The position numbers and the translations under genes were made by a program. The notes under the pieces are model-generated. The model was not told the DNA's origin. It saw only the letters and a program-made list of their open reading frames with translations, and searched no databases. Of a stretch of 55,310 bases of DNA, positions 4,902-52,382 are shown in pieces; within the stretch, counting starts at the first letter, position 1, and each line of letters starts with the position of its first letter. Source of the DNA: a virus. Its lineage: Duplodnaviria > Caudoviricetes. The stretch is taken from IMG/VR virus record IMGVR_UViG_3300023097_000001, positions 1 through 55,310 of that record. One strand, 5' to 3'.

Positions 4902-5441
4902 ATGACTGTCAAGAAGAGCGTTGTCGACCTCATCGCGGCCCTGCGTTCCGGCGAGTACCTGAAGGGTACCGGAGCGCTGCGAGTGCGGAACGGACTGGAC
5001 CAGCCCTTCCAGTACTGCTGCGAAGGGGTCATGTGCGAAATCTCGGAAGCCCCGATCGTGAAGGAATCCGGGACGTTCAACAACAAGTACCTCACGACCA
5101 GGTTCTCCAAGACCCCCGTGATCGACCTGAACCCGGACATGTACACGCCTTACTCCGACGCGTTCGCTCCGTCCTACGTCTGGGAAGGCAGCGGCATGAC
5201 CACGACGGATGACGGTGAGGTGGCCGTCATCGAACTGCCGTACTACGGCGCGGAGTACAACTACGACACGGAATCGTACGACATGGTTCCGGGTGGGTGG
5301 CAGCTCCAGTCGTTGGCCAGCCTGAACGACTACCAGTCTCGGAGCAAGGAGCCTGAGGTCAAGGCGAAGAACGAGTTCACCTTCGCGCAGATCGCGGACC
5401 TGTTGGAATGGGCCATCGTGCGGGACTACGGCAACAAGTGA
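4902..5441 (+). CDS. hypothetical protein (paralog of 20986-21480)
   Basis: ALR...GAL...YCC-x-GV and F-x2-IAD motifs shared with 20986-21480. Confidence 0.8.
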   Translation: MTVKKSVVDLIAALRSGEYLKGTGALRVRNGLDQPFQYCCEGVMCEISEAPIVKESGTFNNKYLTTRFSKTPVIDLNPDMYTPYSDAFAPSYVWEGSGMTTTDDGEVAVIELPYYGAEYNYDTESYDMVPGGWQLQSLASLNDYQSRSKEPEVKAKNEFTFAQIADLLEWAIVRDYGNK

Positions 5442-5526
5442 TCTGAGAGCATTGTTTGTGCTAGGAGCTTTGGTTCCTAGCACGAATTGTCCACTCAGGG
5501 CACACAAGACATGAGGAGAAAAAGAC

Positions 5527-6024
5527 ATGACGACCACCGAAATCAAGCTGACCCCGGCCATGACCACGGCTCTCAAGTTGGCCGAAAAGATCGGCGACAA
5601 CGTGTACCTCCCGGACGGTACCAAGGCGCAGACCATCAAGGGACTCGTGTCCCGAGGTCTGTCGAACGAGTTGGGCGTGCTGACCCCGGAAGGCGCGGAA
5701 GCGTCGTTCCAGCTGGGTGCCGACGTCTCGATCGAGAGCGTTCAGGTCCAGGAGGAGCCCTTGGCTGACTGGGAGCGTGAGCTGCTGGGGACTCCGGAGT
5801 CCATCGCTACCCCGATCGCGGACGAGGACGCGAAGCCCCAGCCCCCGCAGGACAAGCTCACCAAGGAACTCGTCAAGATGCTGGACACCCCGACCCCCGT
5901 CCAGAACCGTGCGGACCGTAGGTTCGCCAAGTTCTCCCTGCGAGGGATGATGGCTCGTCGACAGGAGCGCAAGCGCGTGAAGGAGATCAAGAAGTACGGC
6001 ACCCCGAACAAGGTCGCCGCGTGA
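5527..6024 (+). CDS. hypothetical protein
   Basis: GAGGAG RBS; basic C-terminus. Confidence 0.75.
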   Translation: MTTTEIKLTPAMTTALKLAEKIGDNVYLPDGTKAQTIKGLVSRGLSNELGVLTPEGAEASFQLGADVSIESVQVQEEPLADWERELLGTPESIATPIADEDAKPQPPQDKLTKELVKMLDTPTPVQNRADRRFAKFSLRGMMARRQERKRVKEIKKYGTPNKVAA

Positions 6025-7090
6025 ACTACTACTTCCTGAGTGATGAGCCGCTGACCAAGGCAGAAATCCTGATCACCTTCGGGGTATTGATCTTGACAGT
6101 TCTGCTGCTGGGAAGAATCTTCAGAAAGAAGTGATCATGTCACCCAACGAAGGTGTTCTAGGTCTGTTCGCGCTGTGCATTGGCCTGTTCATACTGGCCT
6201 ACGTCGTCAGCGGGCAGTGGGAAGACGAGTAAAGGCATCATGAGAAGGCATCAGGTAACCCCTGATCACATGTTCCAGCTTGCGGACCGGGGGGTTGACC
6301 CCCGGTCCGAGTTGGACCTGATCGGCAACATTGGTGCGTATGTCGATGACGCGCACGAGTTCTCTCGTGCCTATGCCAACTACGCACAGACCGTGTTCGA
6401 CCTCTGTACGGGCTCTCCAGAGCCGGTGAGCAGGTTCCTCCAGAGGTGGCCGCACAGAAAGGTATTGCTATAGAAATCGCGATAGAACTTCTTAGGACCC
6501 TGTCCGTCATATTTGGCTTGATGCCATTGTGGGCATGGATGTTGTTGGTGTTCGGGGTCATCATCTTGTCGGAACTAGCGGATTACCTAAGGAATAGGTG
6601 ATGCAATGTGAGACCTGAAATCATGATAGCAATCGGCGCGTGCTTCACACTCGGACTGATCTTCGGAAAGAAGAACCCGGTTGTGGCAGGCGCGTGGTTT
6701 GCTGTCGCGTTCATCCTGACCATGTGGGCACCTGGAGGCTTGCTGTCATGACCACCGGATTAGCCAACGGGATAGGCTTCGGTCTGGCCGTGTTCGCAAG
6801 CGCAGTCATGTTCAGCAAGAGGCCGACCAACGCGATTCCGATCTACTTGATTGCGTTGGTGTTCATCGCTTGGGGGTGGGGTATCAGTGGCACCTAGGAA
6901 GCCTGCACCCAAGGCAAAGGGCAAGCTCCCACGTCATGACCGAAGCAAGCAGCTTCCGGTCCGCACGGGTTGGGGCTTGTGGAAGACGCTAGCTGTGGCG
7001 GTTGCGGTTGGTGTGGCTGTGTGGATCGTGCATGGTCCGGACATCCCACCCACGGTACCGGCACCTCCTACGATTGTTGAGCCGAGGTAA
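6021..7090 (+). other. run of small ORFs, mostly 1-2 TM membrane microproteins
   Basis: Hand translation gives MNYYFLSDEP...ILITFGVLILTVLLLGRIFRKK, MSPNEGVLGLFALCIGLFILAYVV..., MRRHQVTPDH..., IEIAIELL..., MRPEIMIAIG..., MTTGLANG... and MAPRKPAP...; the ORFs are closely packed or overlapping. Confidence 0.6.
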
Positions 7091-7726: not shown

Positions 7727-7799
7727 GTCACCATAGCTCAAAGGGACAGAGCAACCGCCTCCTAAGCGGAAGATCCGAGTTCGAGTCTCGGTGGTGACA
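7727..7799 (+). tRNA. tRNA-Arg(CCU)
   Basis: Full cloverleaf: GTCACCA acceptor, anticodon loop CTCCTAA, T-loop TTCGAGT; no encoded CCA. Confidence 0.92.
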
Positions 7800-7837
7800 C
7801 TCAAAAAATGAGAACACTAGACCCTAAGGGGAACACA

Positions 7838-9173: not shown

Positions 9174-9476
9174 ATGGACAAGATCGACGAACTGAAAGAC
9201 GACCTGGTCTACGAGACCAACAAGGTCAGAAACGCAAGTATCACCCTGGGTTCGGGCTGGGCACTGTTCGTGTTGTCCTTCTTCCCGTCGGAACCCTGGG
9301 GGCTGGCCATCGGCTTGCCCGGAATCTTTGCCGCTTTCATCGGCTTGGTTGCGCACCTGGTGATGTTCATGGGCAACCAGTGGTACGACGTTAATGGGAG
9401 CCGGACCAGCCTTCACGGGCGAATCCGGAGCATCCGGAAGCAGATCCGTAAGTTGGAGGATCAGGTTGCCAAATAA
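9174..9476 (+). CDS. membrane protein with two TM segments
   Basis: AAGGAG RBS; two hydrophobic helices and a coiled-coil tail. Confidence 0.7.
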   Translation: MDKIDELKDDLVYETNKVRNASITLGSGWALFVLSFFPSEPWGLAIGLPGIFAAFIGLVAHLVMFMGNQWYDVNGSRTSLHGRIRSIRKQIRKLEDQVAK

Positions 9477-9897
9477 CGCTGACGAGCTGGACCGGCTGCT
9501 GAAGTTCTCATTCTCTCTCGTGGGACGCAGTGAATACCCCCTACAGTTCGGTGTCACAGGGTCCAGAGGGTTCACAGACCTGAGCGTGGTCAGCTTCGCT
9601 ATCGGGGCTGTGGGGATGTTCCACCACGATGCGATCATGCACAACGGTGGGGCAGGCGGAGCCGATGCTCTGTGTCTTGAGGTGTGGCAGCACTACGGAG
9701 CCAACACGTTCATCCATGCCCCTAGGTTGGAGATCTACGGATCTCCGCGTGCCTACCACGTTCGTAACCAAGAGATCGTGGACCGGGCAGATCTTCTGCT
9801 GGCATTCAAGCGTGGGGAGACCAACGGAACACTAGGAACCATCAAAAAGGCGGAAGAACGAGAAATCCCCGTCTTCGTGTTCAACCAAGATCTCTGA
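9466..9897 (+). CDS. SLOG-superfamily (YspA/DUF2493-like) protein
   Basis: VTGSR, GGAGGAD, RNQEIVD and GT-x2-TI motifs; TTG start after GGAGG. Confidence 0.8.
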   Translation: MPNNADELDRLLKFSFSLVGRSEYPLQFGVTGSRGFTDLSVVSFAIGAVGMFHHDAIMHNGGAGGADALCLEVWQHYGANTFIHAPRLEIYGSPRAYHVRNQEIVDRADLLLAFKRGETNGTLGTIKKAEEREIPVFVFNQDL

Positions 9898-9938
9898 TTC
9901 ATTCATAGATGTCAAAACAAAACGAAAAGGAGCGCAAG

Positions 9939-10412
9939 ATGCGTAAGGTTTACAAGGTCACGGGTCAGTCCACCTCCAAGCCCAGCAACCTTCCCGAGGG
10001 CTTCCTGATCAAGGAAGAGCTGGTGCCGGTGGATGTCACGGTGTTGTCCAAGTACGGCGTTCAGTTCCGTGTGCAGAGCTACTCGGGTGATCCTGAGGAC
10101 GCGATGACTCTGGAGATCATCCCGAGTCCGGCTGGCACCTCGGGTTGGGCGGCGTACAACAAGATTTTCGACAAGGAGAACGCGACCAAGCTGCGTGACG
10201 CCCTGAACGAGATCTTGAACGACAAGAAGGGTCGTCGGGTCATCCACGACGCGACCGACAGCCTGAGCGACCCCGCGCGTTGGTACGAGTGCGACAACGG
10301 GAAGTTCTACTACACCAGCTCCAGGCAGATCCCGTCGTCTGCCATCGGGGGTACGGCCACGTACGACTACATCAAGGAGACCTACGGCATCCGGACCGAA
10401 ACCACCATCTGA
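9939..10412 (+). CDS. hypothetical protein (paralog of 10734-11204)
   Basis: KV-x-G-x-S-x2-KP-x-NLP-x-G, KLRD-x-LNEIL and RWYE shared between the two genes. Confidence 0.8.
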   Translation: MRKVYKVTGQSTSKPSNLPEGFLIKEELVPVDVTVLSKYGVQFRVQSYSGDPEDAMTLEIIPSPAGTSGWAAYNKIFDKENATKLRDALNEILNDKKGRRVIHDATDSLSDPARWYECDNGKFYYTSSRQIPSSAIGGTATYDYIKETYGIRTETTI

Positions 10413-10741
10413 TGAACGAAGACAAGGGCTTGTGTCCTGGTTGTGGGGCCTCCGATGTCGGAGGCCCCATTCCCGAAGACATCGTGCATAACTACGTTCC
10501 TTGGGATGTGTACAAGGGAGGCAAGAGCGCGGTAAGGGAGTGGTTGAAGACCAACCCGTGGCCCACGTGGCGTAAGTTCCTCGGAATTGAGGTACGTGGT
10601 GTCTACGACGGAGTTCTGATCTGGAAATGCGAAGACTCTAATCACCAATGGCCCCGTTTCTCTCGTGAGGGATGGGAAAGACTTCACGTCAAGGCACTAG
10701 AAATCATCGAGAACTGGAATAAGGAGAAAAGCAATGGGTAA
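10412..10741 (+). CDS. hypothetical Zn-ribbon-like protein
   Basis: CPGCG and YDGVLIWKC motifs; coupled overlap. Confidence 0.7.
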   Translation: MNEDKGLCPGCGASDVGGPIPEDIVHNYVPWDVYKGGKSAVREWLKTNPWPTWRKFLGIEVRGVYDGVLIWKCEDSNHQWPRFSREGWERLHVKALEIIENWNKEKSNG

Positions 10742-11204
10742 CCGAGTCAACTTCAAGGTGCAGGGCACGTCCAAGACCAAGCCGACCAACCTTCCGGATG
10801 GTCTGACCGTGGAAGAGGTTGAGGTCCCGATGAAGGAGGTTTTCCCGATGCTCTTCGGTCGGGAGCTGACCGTTCAGGAGTCTTCCACCTTCGGGTCCAC
10901 GCACTTCAAGCTGACCGCACCGAGCACGGCTATCGGTAGCAAGGAGATCGCGGGGTACCTCGTGAAGGAGGACGTGGTCAAGCTGCGGGATCTGCTCAAC
11001 GAGATCCTTTCGGGTGGGAAGCGCGTCTTCCAGGACCGTGACAAGTCGACCACCAACCGTTGGTACGAGGTTGCCGACAACAAGTTCAACTACGCGGCCG
11101 ACCGTGAGCGGGCTGAGAAGGCCTACGACCGGTACCCGTCGGACTCCTGGGACCTCACCAAGGTCGAGCAGTTCTACGGCCCGCTGACGCTGGTTCAGGA
11201 CTAG
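10734..11204 (+). CDS. hypothetical protein (paralog of 9939-10412)
   Basis: Same shared motifs as 9939-10412; AAGGAG RBS. Confidence 0.8.
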   Translation: MGNRVNFKVQGTSKTKPTNLPDGLTVEEVEVPMKEVFPMLFGRELTVQESSTFGSTHFKLTAPSTAIGSKEIAGYLVKEDVVKLRDLLNEILSGGKRVFQDRDKSTTNRWYEVADNKFNYAADRERAEKAYDRYPSDSWDLTKVEQFYGPLTLVQD

Positions 11205-11210
11205 TAACAC

Positions 11211-11972
11211 ATGCCGACTCTCGTGGTCGGCTCCACGGCGATGGCGCGCTTCGTTTCCGGGGCGCGCTACCCCAAGGATGTCGACGTTTTCAGTGATAAC
11301 CCTGCCGATTCAGAATGGGATTGCTTCTGGCACGAGTCGCTACGAGAGTGGATCGGCGACGTGTTCAGATTCGCAACCCTGGACGAGCTGTACACCATCA
11401 AGGTTTCCCACGCACAATGGGATCTGAAGAACGGCACTTGGGATAAGCATGTCTACGACATTGTGAATCTCAAGAAGGCAGGTGCCGTACTGGACCTTGA
11501 TCTGCACAAGTTGCTCTACAAGGTGTGGGAAGACACCCACGGTAAAAAGGTCATGGACCTTGATCAGGACAAGCGAGACTTCTTCGATGACGCAGTCAGG
11601 CGTACCTACGACCATGACTCGCTTCACGACTCGGTTGCCTACGGAGAACTGCCGATCTACACGGAAGTGCTGAAGGATGGCGCTGAAGTGGACATCGACA
11701 TGAAGAAGATGAAGGCTTTGCCGCTCCTGAAGTTTGTGGATCTCATCAAGGAAGAGATCTTCGTGACCGCGCTTGAGAGGATTGTGGTCCCCAGGAACTA
11801 CCGAGTCAGCCCCAAGGCTGCCTACTGGTGGGCTTTGAGGCGCACAGCAACGTCACTGACCAAGGGGTGGACCGCAAGGACCATCATGGACAACATCGAG
11901 TTGTTCTTGGAACCGGGCTCCGACTACATCGGACGCCACAAGGAGAAGTCACACAAGCTGGTGAGGGTGTAA
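11211..11972 (+). CDS. putative Pol-beta-superfamily nucleotidyltransferase
   Basis: N-terminal hG[GS]-x15-D-h-D signature (VVGSTA...KDVDVF); also LYTIKVSH and YDHDSLH motifs. Confidence 0.6.
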   Translation: MPTLVVGSTAMARFVSGARYPKDVDVFSDNPADSEWDCFWHESLREWIGDVFRFATLDELYTIKVSHAQWDLKNGTWDKHVYDIVNLKKAGAVLDLDLHKLLYKVWEDTHGKKVMDLDQDKRDFFDDAVRRTYDHDSLHDSVAYGELPIYTEVLKDGAEVDIDMKKMKALPLLKFVDLIKEEIFVTALERIVVPRNYRVSPKAAYWWALRRTATSLTKGWTARTIMDNIELFLEPGSDYIGRHKEKSHKLVRV

Positions 11973-12209
11973 CAATGGACGAAGACGAGGACGCCTTTTA
12001 CGGTGCGTTGGCTGCTGGTATAGCCTTCGCTGTCATTATCGCCATGGTAGTGGCCCTGGGATTCATTCTGGGAATGTGGGCGTGATGGAAGATTTCAAGA
12101 AGTTTATCGGAAGCGTGATTGCATCGTTCCTGATGCTGTTCATGTTCTGTTTCTGCGTCCTGATTCTGTGGGGACTCGCAGAAGCCATCGCTTGGATTGG
12201 GAGGCAGTA

Positions 12210-12599
12210 ATGGAGTGCATGACCTGTAAGTACCAGAATTTGATCCTGGAGTGTTCCTACGACTGGGATACGATCTTTTCTGGTGAGTACTCGTATCGGT
12301 ACAACACGGGATCTCACACGCCGGTCGCGGTCAAGCTTGGGAACGGTGCGGTCCTGAGCGTGGAAGCCAAGATCGACATGGACAAGGAGTGGGGTCCGAA
12401 GAGCTACGACGATGCCTACGAACAGGGTTTCGAAGGCGCGGCGTGGATGGTCCTCAAGGTGGTGGGGGTCGACAAGACCTTGTTCTTCCGCAAGTGGGGA
12501 ACGGCCAACTCCTACGGGCACGTTGCTTGGGACGGTAAGTTCGAGCAGGTGACCGGAACTGAGAAGCAGGTTACGGTTTTCGAGTGGGAAGGCGTCTGA
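12210..12599 (+). CDS. hypothetical protein, G-x3-SY paralog family member 1
   Basis: FRKWGTANSYGHVAWDGKFEQV-x3-EKQVTVFE. Confidence 0.8.
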   Translation: MECMTCKYQNLILECSYDWDTIFSGEYSYRYNTGSHTPVAVKLGNGAVLSVEAKIDMDKEWGPKSYDDAYEQGFEGAAWMVLKVVGVDKTLFFRKWGTANSYGHVAWDGKFEQVTGTEKQVTVFEWEGV

Positions 12600-12976
12600 T
12601 GAGCGAGACGTGCAAGACCTGTGGTCAGGAACTCCCGGACGGAGACACCAACCTGAGTGTTCTGATCAGGGACTCCTGCAACGACATCAGTCAGTTTGCC
12701 GAAGGTTGGGATGCTGTCTGGACCAAGTGGTCGGTTGGCGAGACCAAGTTCCTGGGTGACGACAAGTTGATGATCGAGAAGGTATTCGAAACCAACTGGG
12801 AAGATCTCGATGGTTACGACACCCTTCCGATCGAGATGGTTTTCCAGGTTGCCAGGGGTTACGACTCCGAGTTCTGGAAGATCTGCGGTGAGTGGGACTC
12901 GTACGACGGTAAGAAGTGGAATGGCATGTTCGTCAAGGTCGAGAAGAAGGAAAGGACGTCGGTCTACTATGGCTGA
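12599..12976 (+). CDS. hypothetical protein, G-x3-SY paralog family member 2
   Basis: WKICGEWDSYDGKKWNGMFVKVEKKERT. Confidence 0.8.
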   Translation: MSETCKTCGQELPDGDTNLSVLIRDSCNDISQFAEGWDAVWTKWSVGETKFLGDDKLMIEKVFETNWEDLDGYDTLPIEMVFQVARGYDSEFWKICGEWDSYDGKKWNGMFVKVEKKERTSVYYG

Positions 12977-13364
12977 TCTTACCCCGCAGCAAGTCACCGA
13001 GCTTCTGGAGAACCACGTGTTCTCTGGTTACGTGGAGCCCCGAGAGAATTACCGGGGTGAAACGATCCCAGGATACACCTGGGAGGATCAGGGCTGGGAG
13101 ATGTGGACCACCACTGGGGTTCCGAGTGGGGTTGCCATTCCCGTAGAGGGTCTTGGTCTGGTTCGCCTGATCGATGACTACTACGAGACGGGTGACTACT
13201 CCGGCGAGATGTCCAAGATCTTCCAGGTCGAATCGGAAGACGGTACCAAGACGTACTACTGCCTGGAGGGTACCTGGAGGTCGTACGATGGTTCCGAGTG
13301 GAACGATCACGTCTTCGAGGTCAACCAGCAGCCCGTGACCAAGATCGAGTGGGTTGCTGTCTGA
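12969..13364 (+). CDS. hypothetical protein, G-x3-SY paralog family member 3
   Basis: YCLEGTWRSYDGSEWNDHVFEVNQQPVT. Confidence 0.8.
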   Translation: MADLTPQQVTELLENHVFSGYVEPRENYRGETIPGYTWEDQGWEMWTTTGVPSGVAIPVEGLGLVRLIDDYYETGDYSGEMSKIFQVESEDGTKTYYCLEGTWRSYDGSEWNDHVFEVNQQPVTKIEWVAV

Positions 13365-13630
13365 TGCCATTCGCCAGGAAGAAGCCAATCGAGATCGAGT
13401 ACCGGGTTTTCGATGGTACTAACTGGAAAGAACTAGCAGAGTGGACCAACTACCGGTTCAGGTTGGGAGAGCGTGAACCGGGGTATCCCGCCCCGGAGGC
13501 TGAGGTTTACGACGAACTACACGACACCTGGGTCAAGGTGTTCAAGGGCCAGATCGTCATCAAGGGTGTTGAGGGCGAGTTCTACCCTCACGCTACCGAC
13601 CTGTTCTACCAGAACTACGACCTTCTGTAA
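13364..13630 (+). CDS. conserved phage protein of the KKP...GEFYP family
   Basis: RKKPIEIE and IKGVEGEFYP-x3-DLF-x3-Y, a motif pattern recognised from many phages; function unknown. Confidence 0.75.
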   Translation: MPFARKKPIEIEYRVFDGTNWKELAEWTNYRFRLGEREPGYPAPEAEVYDELHDTWVKVFKGQIVIKGVEGEFYPHATDLFYQNYDLL

Positions 13631-13712
13631 GTATCTTGGCCGTGGTCTTGCACCACGGCCTTGAGGCCTATAGAAATATGCCAAAATTTTGGACCCAAAG
13701 TGAGGAATTGAC

Positions 13713-14270
13713 ATGGGAAACATTTTCACCAGCCTGATCAACAAGCTGAGCAAGCGTCGCCAGAAGAAGGGCAAGCCCGTGCCGGTTGTTCCGGTGCCTG
13801 TGACGGTTCCTGCGGAGCCCAAGCTGCGGGCAGTGACCTACAACCGTGTGGACGGCGTTGTCAGTGGTGGTCGGATCGAGGCCGTTCGTCCCCCGGTCCA
13901 GCAGCGTCCGCGACCGGTGTCCCGTCCGGTGCCGCAGTCGCCCAAGACTGCCAGCCGCAGGCACGATCGGGACTACGACGACGAGATCCGCTACGCGGAG
14001 GTCACCACGTTCTCTCCAGAGTGGTACCGCATGAACGAGGACGCCTCAGGCCCATTCTCCGGGGGCAACAGCAATTCCGGGAGTGACTACACCCCGGAGC
14101 CGGTTTCGTCGTCCTACGTGGCTCCTAGCACCTCGTACGAGGGAGCCTCGTACTCTGCGCAGTCGTACTCTTCGGACAGCGGGTCGGGTGGTAGCTCGTT
14201 CTCTTCCGGCTCCTACAGCGACAGCGGTTCGTCGTCGTCCAGTGGCGGGGGATACGGTGGTGGTGAGTGA
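13713..14270 (+). CDS. hypothetical protein with basic N-terminus and Ser/Gly-rich tail
   Basis: GAGGA RBS; low-complexity SSYS/GSGG C-terminus. Confidence 0.7.
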   Translation: MGNIFTSLINKLSKRRQKKGKPVPVVPVPVTVPAEPKLRAVTYNRVDGVVSGGRIEAVRPPVQQRPRPVSRPVPQSPKTASRRHDRDYDDEIRYAEVTTFSPEWYRMNEDASGPFSGGNSNSGSDYTPEPVSSSYVAPSTSYEGASYSAQSYSSDSGSGGSSFSSGSYSDSGSSSSSGGGYGGGE

Positions 14271-14638
14271 TCACCAAGGATGAAGTGGAATCCCTTCTTG
14301 AGGGTTTGGGCGGGGAAGCAGACGAAGACTCCGATAACTACGAGCGGGTTGGGTGGGGCTACTGGCTGTACGAAGGTACGGCAGAGTTCACCCTTCTCAA
14401 CGAGGAGTACATGGCTCGTACGGTCCAGACCAAGGGCGGATCTGAGGGTGGTGGTTCCGAGGTTGTGGTGATCGTGGAGTTCACGCCCCACGTCAACGGA
14501 ATCAAGAAGATGTCGATGGAGTCCAGGTACTTCGAGAAGCTGGGCTTCTACGGTTCGTACTACGGCGTGGATTTCGACGGAACCTTCACCGAAGTGTTCC
14601 CTAAGCAGAAGACGGTTACGGTTTACGAGAAGAGTTGA
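14267..14638 (+). CDS. hypothetical protein, G-x3-SY paralog family member 4
   Basis: FEKLGFYGSYYGVDFDGTFTEVFPKQKTVTVYE. Confidence 0.8.
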   Translation: MITKDEVESLLEGLGGEADEDSDNYERVGWGYWLYEGTAEFTLLNEEYMARTVQTKGGSEGGGSEVVVIVEFTPHVNGIKKMSMESRYFEKLGFYGSYYGVDFDGTFTEVFPKQKTVTVYEKS

Positions 14639-14639
14639 C

Positions 14640-15746
14640 ATGAGGGTCGATGATGTTTTCGACCCGGCATTGTATGTCGAGATGGAAGGGGCGGGGATGA
14701 TTCGCACTCAGATTCACCCCTCCCTTCCCTTGGCTATCGCCACCTACACCAAGGACTGTGTTGTTGCACGGTGCTGGAATGAGGTGACGTTGCAGTGCCG
14801 TGGTTTGATTTACAACTACGAGACGCAAGAACTTTTGGCTCGTCCCTTTCCGAAGTTCTTCAACCTGGGTGAACCACTTGCCCGTGAGGACTACGAGGCT
14901 GATGTAGAAGTCAGTGACAAACTGGATGGCTCGTTGGGCATCGGTTACGTCTGGGAAGGAAAGCTCTACATTGCCACCAAGGGCAGCTTTGCCAGTGAAC
15001 AAGCTGTCGAAGCCAACAAGATCCTCCAGGAGACCCACCCCAACTGGCTTCCGCCTGAAGGTCTAACCCCGTTGTTCGAGATCATTTACCCCGAGAACCG
15101 TATCGTGCTGGACTATGGTCAATCACGAGAGCTTCGGTTTCTTGAGGCTATTGACATAGAAACGGGAAAGACTTTCGACTGGGGTTCAGACGATAAGGGT
15201 CGTGATAGTGTATGGATTTCGTGGCCCGGACGAACCGTCGGGTTCACGGGGTACCAAACCCTACGACAAGCCGTATCTGCTCTCCCTCGGGAGAACGCAG
15301 AGGGTTTCGTGGTGCGGTACTTGGACACGGATGAGAGAATCAAGATCAAGCAGCAAGACTATCTGGACAAGCACAAGATGGTGTTCTTGCTGTCTCAGAA
15401 GACCATCTGGGAATCACTGAAGAACGGTAGGTTCCACGAGTACAAGTCGGGGATGCCCGATGAGTTCCATGATTGGATGGATTCCGAGGCTTCAAAATTT
15501 ACTGCAAAATTTGAAGACCACCTTTCGATTATCGATGATTGCGTAAATTCCCCTGACCTGAGCTATCTCATTGAGTGTGCCCAGAACGGTGAGCGAGAAG
15601 CACGTCTGATGATCGAAGAACTCATCAGTGACCTGCCTAGGTGGGTGTGGGGTGCCATCTGGTGTGTGGTGGATGGCTACGACTACACCAAGATTATCTA
15701 CAAGCAGTTCGAACCCAAGGGACAAACAAAGGTGGCCAAGCCATGA
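14640..15746 (+). CDS. RNA ligase, T4 Rnl1 family
   Basis: CRGLI, RPFPKFFN, motif I KLDGS, FEII-x-PENRIV and EGFVV. Confidence 0.92.
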   Translation: MRVDDVFDPALYVEMEGAGMIRTQIHPSLPLAIATYTKDCVVARCWNEVTLQCRGLIYNYETQELLARPFPKFFNLGEPLAREDYEADVEVSDKLDGSLGIGYVWEGKLYIATKGSFASEQAVEANKILQETHPNWLPPEGLTPLFEIIYPENRIVLDYGQSRELRFLEAIDIETGKTFDWGSDDKGRDSVWISWPGRTVGFTGYQTLRQAVSALPRENAEGFVVRYLDTDERIKIKQQDYLDKHKMVFLLSQKTIWESLKNGRFHEYKSGMPDEFHDWMDSEASKFTAKFEDHLSIIDDCVNSPDLSYLIECAQNGEREARLMIEELISDLPRWVWGAIWCVVDGYDYTKIIYKQFEPKGQTKVAKP

Positions 15747-15924
15747 CCATGACACCAGAACAACATCGAGCAGAGGCAGAGCGTCTGCTGTCGGACCCCA
15801 TGCCAGATAGCATCGTGGTTCAGCGGACGCCAAGGGGGTATGTCGCACGGAGGGCTACGTCAGAGGATCACGCGAACATCATTGCTCTTGCAAGGGTGCA
15901 CGCAATTCTTTCACAGGAGAAGCG

Positions 15925-16218
15925 ATGAGAGAATACCCCGAAGGTCAGTGCGACAACCCGGAGTTCCACCTCCAACACACGACATTCCTTGAGGACGAAC
16001 TGAGGACGTGTCCTGGAGTTGGTGAGGGTCAGGAGTATGTGTACCGCTTGGTTGACGAGAAGACTGGCACCCACTTGCAGGCTTACGGGGGTCAGTACGT
16101 CTACACCGAGAGGTCACAGGCTCGTGCTCAATGCACGAAGTTCAACAAGAAGTCGTGGCGAAACGAGAAGGCGGTGATTCAGCGTGGGCTCATCCAGTGG
16201 AGTACCGACCCCGTGTAG
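15925..16218 (+). CDS. hypothetical protein
   Basis: AGGAG RBS; ATGA-coupled ORF. Confidence 0.6.
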   Translation: MREYPEGQCDNPEFHLQHTTFLEDELRTCPGVGEGQEYVYRLVDEKTGTHLQAYGGQYVYTERSQARAQCTKFNKKSWRNEKAVIQRGLIQWSTDPV

Positions 16219-16456
16219 GTGTGGGTACGACGATGATGATCTGGAGTTCTGCCTGGACGGTATCGTTTACTCCGATATCTTCCGAGGTATCCAGGAGAAC
16301 GTGTGTGAATGTGACTGCCATAACCTGGTTGCTGCGGTCATTCCGATCAAGCCCAAGGTTATGGTGTGCCACGAGTGTCGGATGCACAGTGGCCACAAGA
16401 TGGACTGCACCAAGGGCCGCGTGGTCTACGAAGAGAGGGAGTTGGTAGCAGCATGA
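16184..16456 (+). CDS. Cys/His-rich Zn-binding hypothetical protein (start uncertain)
   Basis: CECDCH and CHECRMHSGHKMDC (C-x2-C-x5-H-x3-C). Confidence 0.55.
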   Translation: MGSSSGVPTPCRCGYDDDDLEFCLDGIVYSDIFRGIQENVCECDCHNLVAAVIPIKPKVMVCHECRMHSGHKMDCTKGRVVYEERELVAA

Positions 16457-16559
16457 GTGAGGACGCAGGAATCAGGGATATCCGCCAAGCCCTGGACGAG
16501 GCAATCGAGAACACCGATCCTGACTGGGTTCAGAAGATCCTGGACGCGCCGGAGGGCAA

Positions 16560-17489
16560 GTGAGTGCACCAGTGCTGTACTTCACGGTCGGCCTGCCGGG
16601 GTCAGGGAAGACCCACTACGCCAAGTGGTTGCGGACTCTTCACTCCCCCGGAAAGGTGATGACCATTTCCCGTGATGGTCTGCGGGATGAGTACTTCGGT
16701 ACTCGTGATGGATTGATCGGTGACCAGGAGGTGATGATCACTTCTCTCCAACACGCACAGATCCGCAGGGCACTGGAGCGTGGCATTACCGTGATCGTGC
16801 ACGACTGCAATCTTCGGATGCAATACCGCAAGCAGCTTGCACAGATCGCGGAAGACATGGGATTCAAGTGGGTTCAGGTAGACCTGACTCACATCTCTCT
16901 GGAGACGTGCCTCGAAAGGAATGCCAAGCGGGGAAACCCTGTTCCCGAAGAGGTCATCCGGAACATGTTCGATCGTTACATCAAGGCGAACAAGGGTGAG
17001 GCGATGGCACTGCCTCAGCCCAAGGCGAAGGCGGCTCTTCCGAAGCGTGAGATGTACGTTCCGGACACGTCCAAGCCCAAGGCTGTCATCGTGGACATCG
17101 ATGGGACTGTGGCTCTCCACGAGGGTGTGAGGGGTGTCTACGACACGTCCAAGTACCACCTGGACAAGCCCAACCTTCCCATCATCGACATGGTGAGGCA
17201 CGAGGCCTACGACTTGGGGAACAAGATCTTGTTCACCTCGGGTCGTCACGTGAACTTCTTTGGTGTGACCGAAGATTGGTTGTACCAGGAAGTGAAGGTC
17301 CCCATCGAGGGGCAGTTCATGCGTGAGAACCACGGTGTCAGTGACGACATCGAGAAGTTGGATCTCTTCGACAAGTACATCAGGCACAACTACAATGTGG
17401 TTCGTGCATACGACGACCGAAACCGAGTGGTCAAGGCCTGGCGTTCAATCGGCCTGACTTGCTTGCAGGTAGCCGAAGGCGACTTCTGA
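16560..17489 (+). CDS. pnk: polynucleotide 5'-kinase / 3'-phosphatase (T4 PseT-like)
   Basis: P-loop GLPGSGKT, RD-x-LR, HAD motif DIDGT, TSGR and DDR-x2-VV. Confidence 0.93.
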   Translation: MSAPVLYFTVGLPGSGKTHYAKWLRTLHSPGKVMTISRDGLRDEYFGTRDGLIGDQEVMITSLQHAQIRRALERGITVIVHDCNLRMQYRKQLAQIAEDMGFKWVQVDLTHISLETCLERNAKRGNPVPEEVIRNMFDRYIKANKGEAMALPQPKAKAALPKREMYVPDTSKPKAVIVDIDGTVALHEGVRGVYDTSKYHLDKPNLPIIDMVRHEAYDLGNKILFTSGRHVNFFGVTEDWLYQEVKVPIEGQFMRENHGVSDDIEKLDLFDKYIRHNYNVVRAYDDRNRVVKAWRSIGLTCLQVAEGDF

Positions 17490-18063
17490 TGCTGATGGTC
17501 GCGGGGTGGATCTTCTTGTTTGCTGCGGCTTACAAGTTGTTCACCCACAGAAATACGCGTGACCTTTGGGTTGCGCTGGTGTTGGCTTTGTTCTCGGTAT
17601 CAATGCTTTTCTACAACTTCAACTAAAGGAGCACACAATGCACCAGGAAAGTGGAATCGTCGCTGTCATCCTGTTCAGCATCGGCCTCGCACTTCTGGCT
17701 ACGAAGGCCAAGGCTGTTGCCTACACCTTCATGGCTGCGGGTGCTGTGATGGTGGTTGCAGGAGTCAGCGGTTGAGGACTCTCATGATGGCGGTGTCCCT
17801 GGGGCTGATCGTTGGTTCGGTCTGGGCTTTCACCCAGACCAACCCAGCCTTGGGGCTACTGCTTGCCTCCCTGTCGATGGCTGTCACCCTGACCGCACGT
17901 TCTCGAAGGCGGGACAATGAATAAAGGTTGGGCTGCTGGTGGATTCTTCTTCGCGATGGTCGCCACGGCCTGTTTCGTAGCAAGACTTACCCCGTTCGCA
18001 GTCGGGTGTGGGATCATCGCACTCGTCATGTTCACCGAAGCTTTTGTGAATGAGGACAAATGA
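17489..18063 (+). other. four tandem ~45-aa two-TM microproteins
   Basis: MLMVAGWIF..., MHQESGIVAV..., MMAVSLGLIV... and MNKGWAAGGFFF...; each has two hydrophobic helices. Confidence 0.6.
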
Positions 18064-28538: not shown

Positions 28539-29279
28539 ATGACGAACGCAGTGCATGAGGCTTGGGAACTCCTTTCCAATGTCTCGGATGGTGTCTGGGA
28601 GACCCAGTCTCCGCAGTGGCAGGTCGACACCGAAGCGTGGCGGGACCGCTACATGGGTAAGTCGAAGCACATGGGTGAGGTCGGGTTCATCAAGTGGCCG
28701 TCGACTCCGCGCTTCCACAAGTACCTGACCATTGCCGAGAAGATCAATGGCACGAACGCGGCCATTCGTATCCTGGACGGTAAGGTCACGACCCAGTCCC
28801 GCAAGCGGATCATCACGCCTGACGATGACAACTTCGGCTTCGCCAGGTGGGCGTACGACAACGCTGGTGCTCTTACGGATGTTCTGGGCTACGGTGTCCA
28901 CTTCGGTGAGTGGTTCGGTGAGGGCATCCAGAAGAACCCTCTGGGTATCGAGGGCAAGCGCTTCGCGCACTTCTCCCCGTGGAAGTTCAACGACGCAGAG
29001 AAGGAGCGAATCGAGAACTCTGGTCTTGTGGAGTTCGTTCCGATCCTCTTCGAGGGTCAGGCTGACTTCATGACGATTCCCACTGTGCTCACGAACCTGA
29101 GCCAGTTTGGTAGTCAGGTTTCTGGAGCAGCACGGTATGTCCCCGAATCTTTTGATGGTCCGGCGGGCGACTTCACTGTCGCCAACAAGGCTGAGGGCAT
29201 CATCGTGTGGCAGAAGGAGACTCAGCAGAAGTACAAGATCCTGCTGGAGAACGACTCCATCCACAAGGGGCAGCTGTGA
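28539..29279 (+). CDS. RNA ligase, Rnl2-like nucleotidyltransferase domain
   Basis: EKINGTN, QSR-x-R, DNFGFA-x-W, FGEWFG-x-GIQ, VP-x-L and EGIIV. Confidence 0.85.
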   Translation: MTNAVHEAWELLSNVSDGVWETQSPQWQVDTEAWRDRYMGKSKHMGEVGFIKWPSTPRFHKYLTIAEKINGTNAAIRILDGKVTTQSRKRIITPDDDNFGFARWAYDNAGALTDVLGYGVHFGEWFGEGIQKNPLGIEGKRFAHFSPWKFNDAEKERIENSGLVEFVPILFEGQADFMTIPTVLTNLSQFGSQVSGAARYVPESFDGPAGDFTVANKAEGIIVWQKETQQKYKILLENDSIHKGQL

Positions 29280-50924: not shown

Positions 50925-50959
50925 CTGTTCACAACTTTCTATAGCATGTCGAATAAAAG

Positions 50960-51031
50960 TCAGGATGGGTGGGATCGAACCACCGGCCCCGCGCTTCCAA
51001 AGCGCTCACTCTACCTCTGAGCTACACCCTG
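50960..51031 (-). tRNA. tRNA-Pro(UGG)
   Basis: Cloverleaf; anticodon loop TTTGGAA. Confidence 0.88.
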
Positions 51032-51045
51032 ATTGTCTAACAAAG

Positions 51046-51117
51046 AGCCGCTACTAGGACTTGAACCCAGAACCACCCGCTTACGAGGCGGGTGCTCTTC
51101 CATTGAGCTACAACGGC
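51046..51117 (-). tRNA. tRNA-Thr(CGU)
   Basis: Cloverleaf; loop CTCGTAA. Confidence 0.9.
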
Positions 51118-51121
51118 ATTG

Positions 51122-51193
51122 CGGGGCCACGAGGTCTCGAACCTCGGACAGCTCTTTTGGAGAGAGCCGTTTTGCCTACTAAACTATGTCCCC
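51122..51193 (-). tRNA. tRNA-Trp(CCA)
   Basis: Cloverleaf; loop CTCCAAA. Confidence 0.88.
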
Positions 51194-51246
51194 TTGACTA
51201 GCAGGCGCAGAAGAAGCGCCCACAGTCCTTACACAAAAACACCATG

Positions 51247-51317
51247 CTGCCTGCCCTGGATTCGAACCAAGAACAGATGGTTCAGAGCCACCCGTGTTGC
51301 CGTTACACCAACAGGCA
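51247..51317 (-). tRNA. tRNA-Gln(CUG)
   Basis: U1-A72, loop CTCTGAA, G73. Confidence 0.9.
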
Positions 51318-51369
51318 TTGTCCGTGCACCCTCTTACGCAGGCGTCCCCACTCGCGAATACACGGATTG

Positions 51370-51441
51370 TCATCCATCCAGGATTTGAACCTGGAACCTA
51401 GAGCTTAAGAGGCCCTTGCTCTACCCTTGAGCTAATGGACG
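51370..51441 (-). tRNA. tRNA-Lys(CUU)
   Basis: Cloverleaf; loop CTCTTAA. Confidence 0.9.
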
Positions 51442-51442
51442 G

Positions 51443-51515
51443 TCGCTCGTCCTGGAATCGAACCAGGGACCTTCTACTCATCAGGTAGACGCTCTTACCA
51501 CTGAGTTAACGAGCT
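51443..51515 (-). tRNA. tRNA-Ile(GAU), atypical G37
   Basis: Cloverleaf; loop CTGATGA; 1:72 mismatch. Confidence 0.82.
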
Positions 51516-51521
51516 ATACTT

Positions 51522-51608
51522 CTACACGCAGTGACAGTTCGTCAAAGAGTCACCCGTGTTCATCTTGCCCGTACCATGACAGTCCGGGCAGTTGTACTTT
51601 GGTTTCAT
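51522..51608 (-). CDS. DnaJ-type Zn-finger microprotein (28 aa)
   Basis: MKPKYNCPDCHGTGKMNTGDSLTNCHCV; AGGAG RBS. Confidence 0.65.
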   Translation of the reverse strand: MKPKYNCPDCHGTGKMNTGDSLTNCHCV

Positions 51609-51616
51609 CGGAACTC

Positions 51617-51739
51617 CTACTCAGTGACGGTTCCGCTCCCGTGACAGGTGGGACAGACGATCTCGGTCTGACTTCCATCTGGATTACGCTGGTAAACCGT
51701 CTTTTCACCCTTGCAGGTGTAGCACTCTACTGTTGCCAT
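51617..51739 (-). CDS. DnaJ-type Zn-finger microprotein (40 aa)
   Basis: MATVECYTCKGEK...VCPTCHGSGTVTE; GAGAGG RBS. Confidence 0.7.
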   Translation of the reverse strand: MATVECYTCKGEKTVYQRNPDGSQTEIVCPTCHGSGTVTE

Positions 51740-51760
51740 TCCAACCTCTCGTACGTGGTC

Positions 51761-51832
51761 GGTAAGGACGGGACTCGAACCCGCTAAAACCGGTTTCACA
51801 AACCGGTGCCTCGGCCACTTCGGCATCCTTCC
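51761..51832 (-). tRNA. tRNA-His(GUG)
   Basis: Loop TTGTGAA, C73; the encoded -1 base is A rather than G. Confidence 0.85.
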
Positions 51833-51834
51833 TG

Positions 51835-51906
51835 CTCCCACAACTGGATTCGAACCAGTAACCCGCGCCTTAACAGGGCGCTGCTCTGCCGTTGAGCTAT
51901 ACGGGA
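51835..51906 (-). tRNA. tRNA-Asn(GUU)
   Basis: Cloverleaf; loop CTGTTAA, G73. Confidence 0.92.
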
Positions 51907-51998
51907 ATAACGTGGCCACTCGATACACTCCATAGACCGGAGCATCGCTGGACCAACGGACAGTTCCTACATGCGTGAGTGTACTGTCAACTAAACTG

Positions 51999-52074
51999 TC
52001 GCTCCTGAGGGATTCGAACCCCCGCAAACCCAGGTTCGTAGCCTGGTGCTCTGTCCGGACTGAGCTAAGAAGCG
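51999..52074 (-). tRNA. tRNA-Arg(ACG)
   Basis: Cloverleaf; loop CTACGAA. Confidence 0.9.
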
Positions 52075-52077
52075 ATA

Positions 52078-52148
52078 TTACCCGCCAGGGAATCGAACCC
52101 TGATCTCCTGGGTGTAGGCCAGGAACTCTTCCTTTGAGCTAGCAGGCA
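52078..52148 (-). tRNA. tRNA-Val(UAC), atypical C33
   Basis: Stem CCTGG/CCAGG; loop CCTACAC. Confidence 0.82.
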
Positions 52149-52151
52149 AAG

Positions 52152-52225
52152 CCGAAACGCTTGGATTTGAACCAAGAACCCGTGGCTTTTCACGCCACTG
52201 CTCTTCCAAGTTGAGCTACGTCCCG
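52152..52225 (-). tRNA. tRNA-Phe(GAA), atypical G32
   Basis: Stem GTGGC/GCCAC; loop GTGAAAA. Confidence 0.85.
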
Positions 52226-52229
52226 TTGA

Positions 52230-52303
52230 TCCCAGTTCAAGGACTCGAACCTCGAACTCCCGAGTTACAGTCAGGCCGGTTGCCAATTACCATACAAACT
52301 GGG
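52230..52303 (-). tRNA. tRNA-Tyr(GUA), no long variable arm
   Basis: Loop CTGTAAC; C1-G72, A73; 4-nt variable loop. Confidence 0.78.
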
Positions 52304-52307
52304 ATAG

Positions 52308-52382
52308 TACCCCTCCCCAGATTCGAACTGGGAACCTTCCGGGTCTGAGCCGGACGCCTCTGCCAGGTTGGGCTAGAAGGGC
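52308..52382 (-). tRNA. tRNA-Leu(CAG), no long variable arm
   Basis: Loop CTCAGAC; A73; 5-nt variable loop. Confidence 0.82.

Follow-up and report, generated by a model that had tools for sequence, protein, structure and literature searches.

A conserved two-part phage module of a predicted MenT-like nucleotidyltransferase and diverged small acidic proteins

The viral DNA considered here (the window, 55,310 bases, positions 1 to 55,310 of the IMG/VR virus record IMGVR_UViG_3300023097_000001) carries early and replication genes on its + strand and structural genes on its - strand. Among the early genes, one encoding a nucleotidyltransferase-like (NTase) protein of the Pol-beta superfamily (11211-11972, +, 253 amino acids (aa)) is followed on the same strand by four genes for small acidic proteins, here designated p1 (12210-12599, 129 aa, isoelectric point (pI) 4.7), p2 (12599-12976, 125 aa, pI 4.4), p3 (12969-13364, 131 aa, pI 4.1) and p4 (14267-14638, 123 aa, pI 4.4), and further on by genes for an RNA ligase and a polynucleotide kinase-phosphatase. 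The run from the NTase to the kinase-phosphatase (PNK) lies entirely on the + strand and is tightly packed, with overlapping stop and start codons at most junctions. A nucleotide search with positions 11000-17500 of the window against deposited phages returned no match. Comparison at the protein level, discussed below, shows that the NTase and the small proteins are a conserved two-part phage module, often translationally coupled, with near-obligate synteny in both directions.

The 253-aa protein matches the Pfam family DUF7275 (PF23940, E 1.6e-53, 181.9 bits against a cut-off of 27) and phrog_6944 (E 1.3e-91), and its N-terminus resembles DUF7277 (PF23942, E 4.6e-4), where the window copy, at 21.3 bits, falls under the 27-bit cut-off. 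Both families are precomputed on several NTase homologues, giving an architecture with a DUF7277 N-terminal core and a DUF7275 helical domain. An AlphaFold2 (AF2) model built from 38 homologues reached a predicted local distance difference test (pLDDT) score of 90.1. When it was compared with 48,161 PDB chains by VIA-align, ranks 1-10 were all NTase-fold or NTase-associated proteins (Z 4.4-7.2), led by MenT1 (Z 7.2, root-mean-square deviation 3.3 Å over 104 aligned residues) and followed by AbiEi (Z 6.6), MenT4 (Z 6.4) and TglT (Z 6.0); the rest were other minimal NTases and aminoglycoside or lincosamide NTases. Foldseek likewise gave MenT1 as the likeliest PDB match (prob 0.77), with nothing at E<=0.001. 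Z values of 6-7 are modest and common for models that have no true match, and the assignment is credible despite them because the match list is consistent and the sequence motif agrees with it.

That motif, GS...DxD, had led the original prediction, made from the letters alone, to call the protein an NTase, and this part of it has held up well. The signature corresponds to G7-S8...D23-x-D25 and is conserved over 82 unique homologues (G7 in 81, S8 in 80, and both Asp residues in all 82). In the model G7-S8 sits after beta-1, between the strand 3-6 and the helix 7-11, and D23 and D25 stand at the start of beta-2 (strand 25-28). The candidate for the third carboxylate, expected on beta-3, is D37, located on the strand 37-39 and at least 90% conserved in the 38 close homologues; in distant homologues the site reads D or E by eye, in a poorly aligned region that has an insertion in the T4-like forms. 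K64, H135, D136, H139, E181, E182, E189 and R190, assigned to the helical domain, are also invariant. Taken together, the model and the motif indicate a Pol-beta-type NTase of MenT-like architecture, predicted to be catalytically intact. An HD-domain origin for the invariant His and Asp residues was considered and rejected, as the fold matches include no HD-domain structure, and a DUF6036 lead for the NTase (Atlas 0.90) was not confirmed. Searching PDB sequences with the NTase, both by sequence and by profile, returned only chance ankyrin-repeat matches and no MenT chain, and NCBIfam and PADLOC scans (the latter at E<=1) gave no match for any of the seven proteins scanned. Among 50,697 deposited phage records, 706 contain the family; they include actinophages as well as T4-like, rV5-like and Vibrio phages.

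The four small proteins had been described as paralogues with dissimilar N-termini and a shared C-terminal G-x3-SY motif. A hidden Markov model (HMM) made from 189 domains, none of them from the window, matched exactly these four among the 451 open reading frames (ORFs; at least 45 aa, six frames) of the window, with E values of 1.2e-14 (p1), 4.9e-13 (p2), 3.2e-14 (p3) and 1.2e-15 (p4); nothing else in the window matched at E<=10. All four also match phrog_18295 (p1 1.2e-5, p2 9e-4, p3 4.5e-4, p4 5e-11) and three of them phrog_8206, both of which are families of small proteins to which no function is assigned; p3 matches phrog_16046, phrog_8206 and phrog_18295. Identity to p1 is 31% for p2, 24% for p3 and 38% for p4. 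By these profile matches, p1-p4 are true paralogues of one family, in which p1 belongs to a divergent sub-cluster of 10 members, p3 to the main cluster of 120 members over 70 loci, and p4 is the most typical member. Across the family, the proteins are about 100-130 aa long and acidic (median pI 4.51, net charge about -11 among 210 members). Tblastn searches against phages gave no match for p3 and only 7 short matches for p4.

The conserved domain, with the consensus WVVFKV...RYFRKDGYYASYDGSEWDGDLEEVEPKEKTVTVYE, is always the last part of the protein, a median of 3 residues following it, and the overall identity between family domains is only about 20-40%. Nonetheless, the Ser of the motif is invariant: all 193 unique domains taken from phage loci have it, and so do all 170 domains of the 150 cluster representatives. 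It is S97 in p4 and S101 in p1. The Gly is present in 181 of the 193. The Tyr fared less well: the residue after the Ser is Y in 112, W in 35, F in 23 and H in 21 of the 193 domains, and Y in 80, H in 45, F in 25 and W in 20 of the 170. Because W, F or H replaces Tyr in about 40-50% of the domains, the "SY" of the original prediction is really S-aromatic, and an invariant SY with the Tyr as acceptor is not supported. A profile search of 1.84 billion representatives yielded 4222 small-protein clusters at 50% identity (E<=0.001), and tandem two-domain forms account for 20 of the top 150.

The AF2 model of p4 (pLDDT 89.5) is a single domain in which an N-terminal helix packs on an antiparallel sheet of five strands. 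No fold family can be named for it because no convincing PDB relative was found: the best was GspK (Z 5.7), an NTF2-like match had prob 0.85 at E 0.2, and Foldseek against the PDB returned nothing at E<=0.001. Atlas leads to Phage_T4_Y04K (0.85) and Tad3 (0.81) lay under the 0.9 bar and were not confirmed. Separately, p1 (12210-12260) and p2 (12599-12690) open with a CxxC and a further Cys that are absent from p3, p4 and most family members; a small zinc knuckle is possible, and for p2 the zinc-ribbon matches were only faint (E 0.045-0.12).

The co-occurrence of the two families across phages, on which the original prediction depended, was found from both sides. Anchored on the NTase, the best 80 of 106 confirmed IMG/VR relatives (32-85% identity) were inspected, and in 77 of them the NTase gene is followed on its own strand by one to five small-protein genes; locus L043 has one additional copy just upstream of the NTase. 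The three loci with no small protein offer only <=681 bp of downstream sequence each. Copy number varies widely, with 12 loci having one copy, 21 two, 25 three, 18 four and one five. The nearest copy adjoins the NTase in 59 of the 77 loci, and in 40 of the 77 the first small-protein start falls at -7 to +10 nt from the NTase stop. Anchored on the small protein, two motif scans yielded 20 contigs outside the first 80, of which 17 have the NTase directly upstream. The exceptions are one contig that ends 426 bp upstream and the loci L108 and L109, which carry identical ORF hits and have no NTase within 5.7 kb. The contig of L108 is of low-GC phage origin and has two small-protein genes (5365-6177), the first without the otherwise invariant Ser and the second with it.

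The pairing extends to cells and to cultured phages. The NTase is rare in bacterial genomes: 185,579 species genomes gave 17 loci, all of which have the small protein. In Gordonia phage Smoothie the NTase is gene 16 and the small proteins are genes 17-19; in Streptomyces phage Blueeyedbeauty they are gene 205 and genes 206-207. Vibrio phage R16F has a small protein downstream of the NTase (E 3.1e-11), and the KVP40-like Vibrio phage PC-Liy1 has one immediately upstream (E 1.2e-9). When all neighbouring ORFs were clustered, only the NTase and small-protein families proved to be broadly shared. A Sir2-family gene was observed four to six genes 3' of the NTase homologue in two loci, at 6032-6747 of L084 (Escherichia phage Mt1B1_P17) and at 5894-6634 of L086 (PC-Liy1).

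Whether the two proteins touch was approached by co-folding the NTase with p4, each with its own alignment, as the original prediction had envisaged. The median score was 0.53 (runs of 0.53, 0.38 and 0.57), all three controls gave 0.00, and the result was graded as weak support. To put this into perspective, of 80 solved complexes 58 reach the pass mark, as do 2 of 110 mismatched pairs, and scores of <=0.60 include only 7 of the 80 solved complexes and both of the passing mismatched pairs. The runs share at least 91% of contacts, and the partner pLDDT is at least 76. Further leads come from gene fusions. In Nocardia ninae, the NTase and a small protein form a single 394/395-aa ORF (L139, 4998-6185) in which the NTase stop is missing, and the NCBI annotation of the 394-aa protein shows both Pfam families; this could be a true fusion or an assembly error, and a search with its small-protein part returned only the Nocardia protein itself. 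Another candidate fusion is a 383-aa "DUF7275" protein of the Alteromonas phage vB_AmeM_PT11-V22, which the small-protein model matched in BFVD (E 2.3e-3). A search for longer NTase fusions, of 444-2000 aa, found none, which is weak evidence by the search's own grading. Because the co-fold, the fusion leads and the frequent start/stop overlap point the same way, the NTase and the small proteins probably associate directly.

Other genes of the block appear to be peripheral to the module. Between the NTase and p1 lie two putative coding ORFs for hydrophobic peptides, one of 36 aa (11975-12085, +), with its ATG 3 nt past the NTase stop and a single hydrophobic stretch, and one of 41 aa (12085-12210, +), whose ATG overlaps the preceding TGA and whose stop overlaps the p1 ATG. 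Both may be membrane peptides, and the 36-aa ORF is outside the conserved core of the module. Between p3 and p4 are the gene of the KKP...GEFYP family (13364-13630, +; phrog_1810 E 1.8e-15, phrog_419 E 6.8e-15), which the original prediction had correctly located within the block, and a gene for a 185-aa protein (13713-14270, +) whose N-terminus is basic and rich in Pro and Val and whose low-complexity tail is rich in Ser, Gly and Tyr; no Pfam or PHROG match was found for it. Homologues of the former occur in one and of the latter in three of the 80 related loci; both genes are local insertions outside the conserved unit.

Directly after p4 comes the Rnl1-type RNA ligase (14640-15746, +; PF09511 E 1.7e-15, phrog_562 E 7.9e-62), and three short ORFs separate it from the polynucleotide kinase-phosphatase (16560-17489, +; PF25109 E 1.6e-38, PF13671 E 2.4e-18). 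A second ligase-type gene is found at 28539-29279 (+; PF09414 RNA_ligase, E 1.7e-9), and the window phage therefore has two RNA-ligase-family genes along with the kinase-phosphatase. Just 5' of the NTase there is another paralogous pair (9909-10412 and 10734-11204, +; 36% identical over 129 aa, E 2e-20) without Pfam matches, whose homologues occur in only 4-5 of the 80 related loci. The gene before that pair (9394-9897, +) has counterparts close to the module in 6 of the 80 viral and 3 of the 17 bacterial-genome loci, and its homologue at L003 gives a weak SLOG-family match (PF10686 YAcAr, E 9.3e-5) that lies below the cut-off.

The original prediction also suggested a tRNA-repair role and noted that the block runs straight into the ligase and kinase genes. 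This layout is real in the window. A survey of 50 whole NTase-bearing contigs found Rnl1 (PF09511, the one ligase family surveyed) in only 20 of them, and within +/-8 kb of the NTase in 20 of the 80 loci; because of this, the adjacency is a trait of the window's phage lineage and not of the module. The tRNA side of the link fared better. The same 50 contigs contain tRNA genes (RF00005) in 45 cases and at least five of them in 39, and within +/-8 kb of the NTase there is a tRNA gene in 54 of the 80 loci and three or more in 31. The window has 14 tRNA genes, 13 of which form one array on the - strand (50959-52382), with the other at 7727-7800 (+). A CCA near the 3' end is absent from 206 of the 272 unique tRNA genes close to the module and, by a generous test, from 12 of the 14 in the window, which therefore need post-transcriptional CCA addition; the head domain of a canonical CCA-adding enzyme (PF01743) was found in only 3 of the 50 contigs. 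These counts are suggestive of a module concentrated in tRNA-rich phages, a link that is real but loose.

Because of the fold, the genomic context and this tRNA richness, the reading that is tentatively favoured, with a confidence that stops short of even, is that the enzyme is a MenT-like NTase of RNA or tRNA 3' ends which the small acidic partners gate or direct. The small proteins would bind the NTase, which would add nucleotides to an RNA 3'-OH as its nearest structural relatives do, the likeliest substrate being the tRNA acceptor end. The role might then be to mature or repair the tRNA pool of phages that have their own, mostly CCA-less, tRNA genes, and the partners may exert their control by occupying the nucleic-acid-binding face of the enzyme. 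Co-transcription of the module with Rnl1 and Pnkp in the window phage would fit an RNA-end-healing set.

Several observations weigh against this 3'-end reading. The structural kinship has modest Z values, as already said, and no sequence-level link was found between the NTase and MenT/AbiEii, RlaP or CCA-adding enzymes. The NTase itself is not basic (median pI 6.2), and the acidity of its partners is unusual for tRNA-binding factors, which argues against RNA binding by the "specificity adaptors" of the original prediction. Three contigs have both the NTase and a canonical CCA-adding head; 13 of the 14 window tRNA genes are 39 kb from the module on the opposite strand; Pnk lies within +/-8 kb in only 17 of the 80 loci, and Rnl1 is scarce as well. 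The tRNA association may be confounded by phage size or lineage, as the figures cover NTase-bearing contigs and loci. Longer NTase homologues in T4-like (RB69ORF134c), rV5-like and Ac42-like phages have no detectable partner of this family: a 47-position small-protein HMM found nothing in the RB69, Mt1B1_P17 or Ac42 loci. RB69ORF133c, the gene downstream in Mt1B1_P17 and T4 NrdC.9 were tried as partners and rejected, with hhalign probabilities below 1% against the small-protein profile. Lastly, the invariant Ser and the presence of up to five diverged copies are left unexplained.

It is these last two features that are better explained by a different activity, in which the invariant Ser of every small protein would receive a nucleoside monophosphate (NMP), or a short chain of nucleotides, from the NTase. 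The conserved C-terminal hairpin would serve for recognition and as the acceptor, and the diverged remainder would give each paralogue a target of its own, for example one of several host defence proteins. This is possible, if on balance unlikely. It would account for a Ser that never varies in domains only about 20-40% identical, for one to five strongly diverged copies within one genome and for the tandem two-domain forms (20 of the 150 cluster representatives); the acidity suits a protein substrate or mimic better than an RNA binder, and the weak co-fold support (0.53 versus 0.00) and the one natural fusion agree with it. Against it, the co-fold returned no contacts that would place the Ser at the active site, and the Ser could be structural. 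Furthermore, the nearest structural relatives of the NTase act on tRNA, the presence in tRNA-rich phages goes unexplained, and the L108/L109 pair has no NTase within reach, yet one copy there retains the Ser. A further, highly doubtful proposal casts the small acidic proteins as tRNA-end mimics, on whose Ser the NTase would build a nucleotide or short oligonucleotide tail, so that the conjugates bait or jam host defences aimed at tRNA acceptor ends or anticodon loops, with each diverged paralogue tuned to another of these defences. One idea would then take in the Ser that does not vary, the acidity, the varying copy number, the MenT-like enzyme and the confinement to phages rich in tRNA genes.

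The MenT-like fold also invites a toxin-like scenario of host take-over, in which the NTase blocks host tRNA acceptor ends, the phage tRNAs replace the host pool and the small proteins serve as antidotes or timers. The translationally coupled two-gene layout with a small acidic partner fits this, as do the strong association with phages carrying many tRNA genes and the rarity in cells (17 loci in 185,579 species genomes versus 706 of 50,697 phage records). However, up to five diverged antidotes per enzyme are hard to justify, the partner, encoded downstream, is unlike the MenA or AbiEi antitoxins, PADLOC and toxin-family profiles gave no match, and the module of the window has repair enzymes for neighbours; this scenario is accordingly judged improbable. 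Even less probable is that the genes are merely neighbours in a conserved early-gene block with no functional coupling, the small proteins being, for example, stand-alone anti-defence binders or sponges. The small proteins of L108/L109 and the partnerless T4-like and rV5-like NTase homologues speak for it, as do, weakly, the Atlas leads to Tad3 and Phage_T4_Y04K. On the other side, the adjacency is kept across Actinobacteria and Vibrio phages while every other neighbour changes, and it persists at NTase identities of 32-85% in the 80 viral loci and of about 35-37% in the Vibrio phages. The start and stop codons overlap in many loci, a natural fusion of the two proteins exists, the co-fold controls gave 0.00, and the small-protein profile finds nothing in T4 itself (whole record, E<=1).

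A minimal NTase with a cognate small protein is a known kind of system; the small-protein family found here is large and uncharacterised. No full-text literature on DUF7275 or DUF7277 was found, although a mention in paper supplements is possible, and searches on phage NTases, anti-defence and AMPylation gave nothing matching by title or abstract. Neither the NTase family nor the small-protein family, with its 4222 clusters, has an assigned function, and a two-gene pairing that outlasts all other neighbours is the type of signal that lay behind new toxin-antitoxin, anti-defence and RNA-repair mechanisms. Because cultured phages such as Smoothie and Blueeyedbeauty carry the module, it is directly testable, and the outcome would show either how tRNA-rich phages manage or attack tRNA pools or a new protein-nucleotidylylation system.

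Among known systems, minimal NTases beside a small protein modified on a hydroxyl side chain are represented by MNT-HEPN (MntA-HepT) and GlnD-PII: MntA AMPylates HepT, and GlnD uridylylates PII. The active site of MenT3/TglT phosphorylates its own Ser. The partner described here differs in being an alpha+beta protein with an antiparallel sheet and in giving no HEPN or PII profile match (E<=1); the all-helical partner with an Rx4-6H motif that marks MNT-HEPN is replaced by a helix and a five-strand antiparallel sheet. The conserved residue is also a Ser and not a Tyr, and its modification is hypothetical.

The closest structural likeness is to MenT/AbiEii (DUF1814), whose members gave the best matches over both the Pol-beta core and the C-terminal helical domain and which share the minimal size, the GS...DxD active site and a small cognate protein. 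MenT toxins are reported to extend tRNA acceptor ends (PMC10435456). In contrast to MenT/AbiEii, the window NTase matches neither PF08843 nor PADLOC models at E<=1, has many additional invariant His, Asp and Glu residues in its helical domain, and belongs to a module that is phage-borne and not chromosomal. The cognate antitoxin there lies upstream, whereas here the partner lies downstream in all 77 loci, in one to five copies, and is a beta-rich protein whose model has no AbiEi or MenA match.

Class II CCA-adding enzymes (PF01743) likewise belong to the Pol-beta NTases, work on tRNA 3' ends and occur in some tRNA-rich phages; the window NTase gives no match to their profile, is smaller by about 150 aa, lacks recognisable body or tail domains for tRNA binding and is accompanied by an acidic partner. 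A last parallel is RlaP (PF10127), an unrelated Pol-beta family that includes T4 NrdC.11, is encoded beside RNA ligases and is reported to add 1-2 NMP to damaged RNA 3' ends (bioRxiv 10.64898/2025.12.29.696909; PMC7824862). The window layout, a phage-borne Pol-beta NTase beside an RNA ligase and a PNK, is analogous to it. The window NTase differs in having no PF10127 match at E<=1; moreover, RlaP is reported to track RNA ligases, while the window-type NTase is accompanied by Rnl1 in 20 of 50 contigs, and as far as the cited accounts go no small-protein partner is described for RlaP, such as the one to five diverged acidic proteins that accompany the NTase here.

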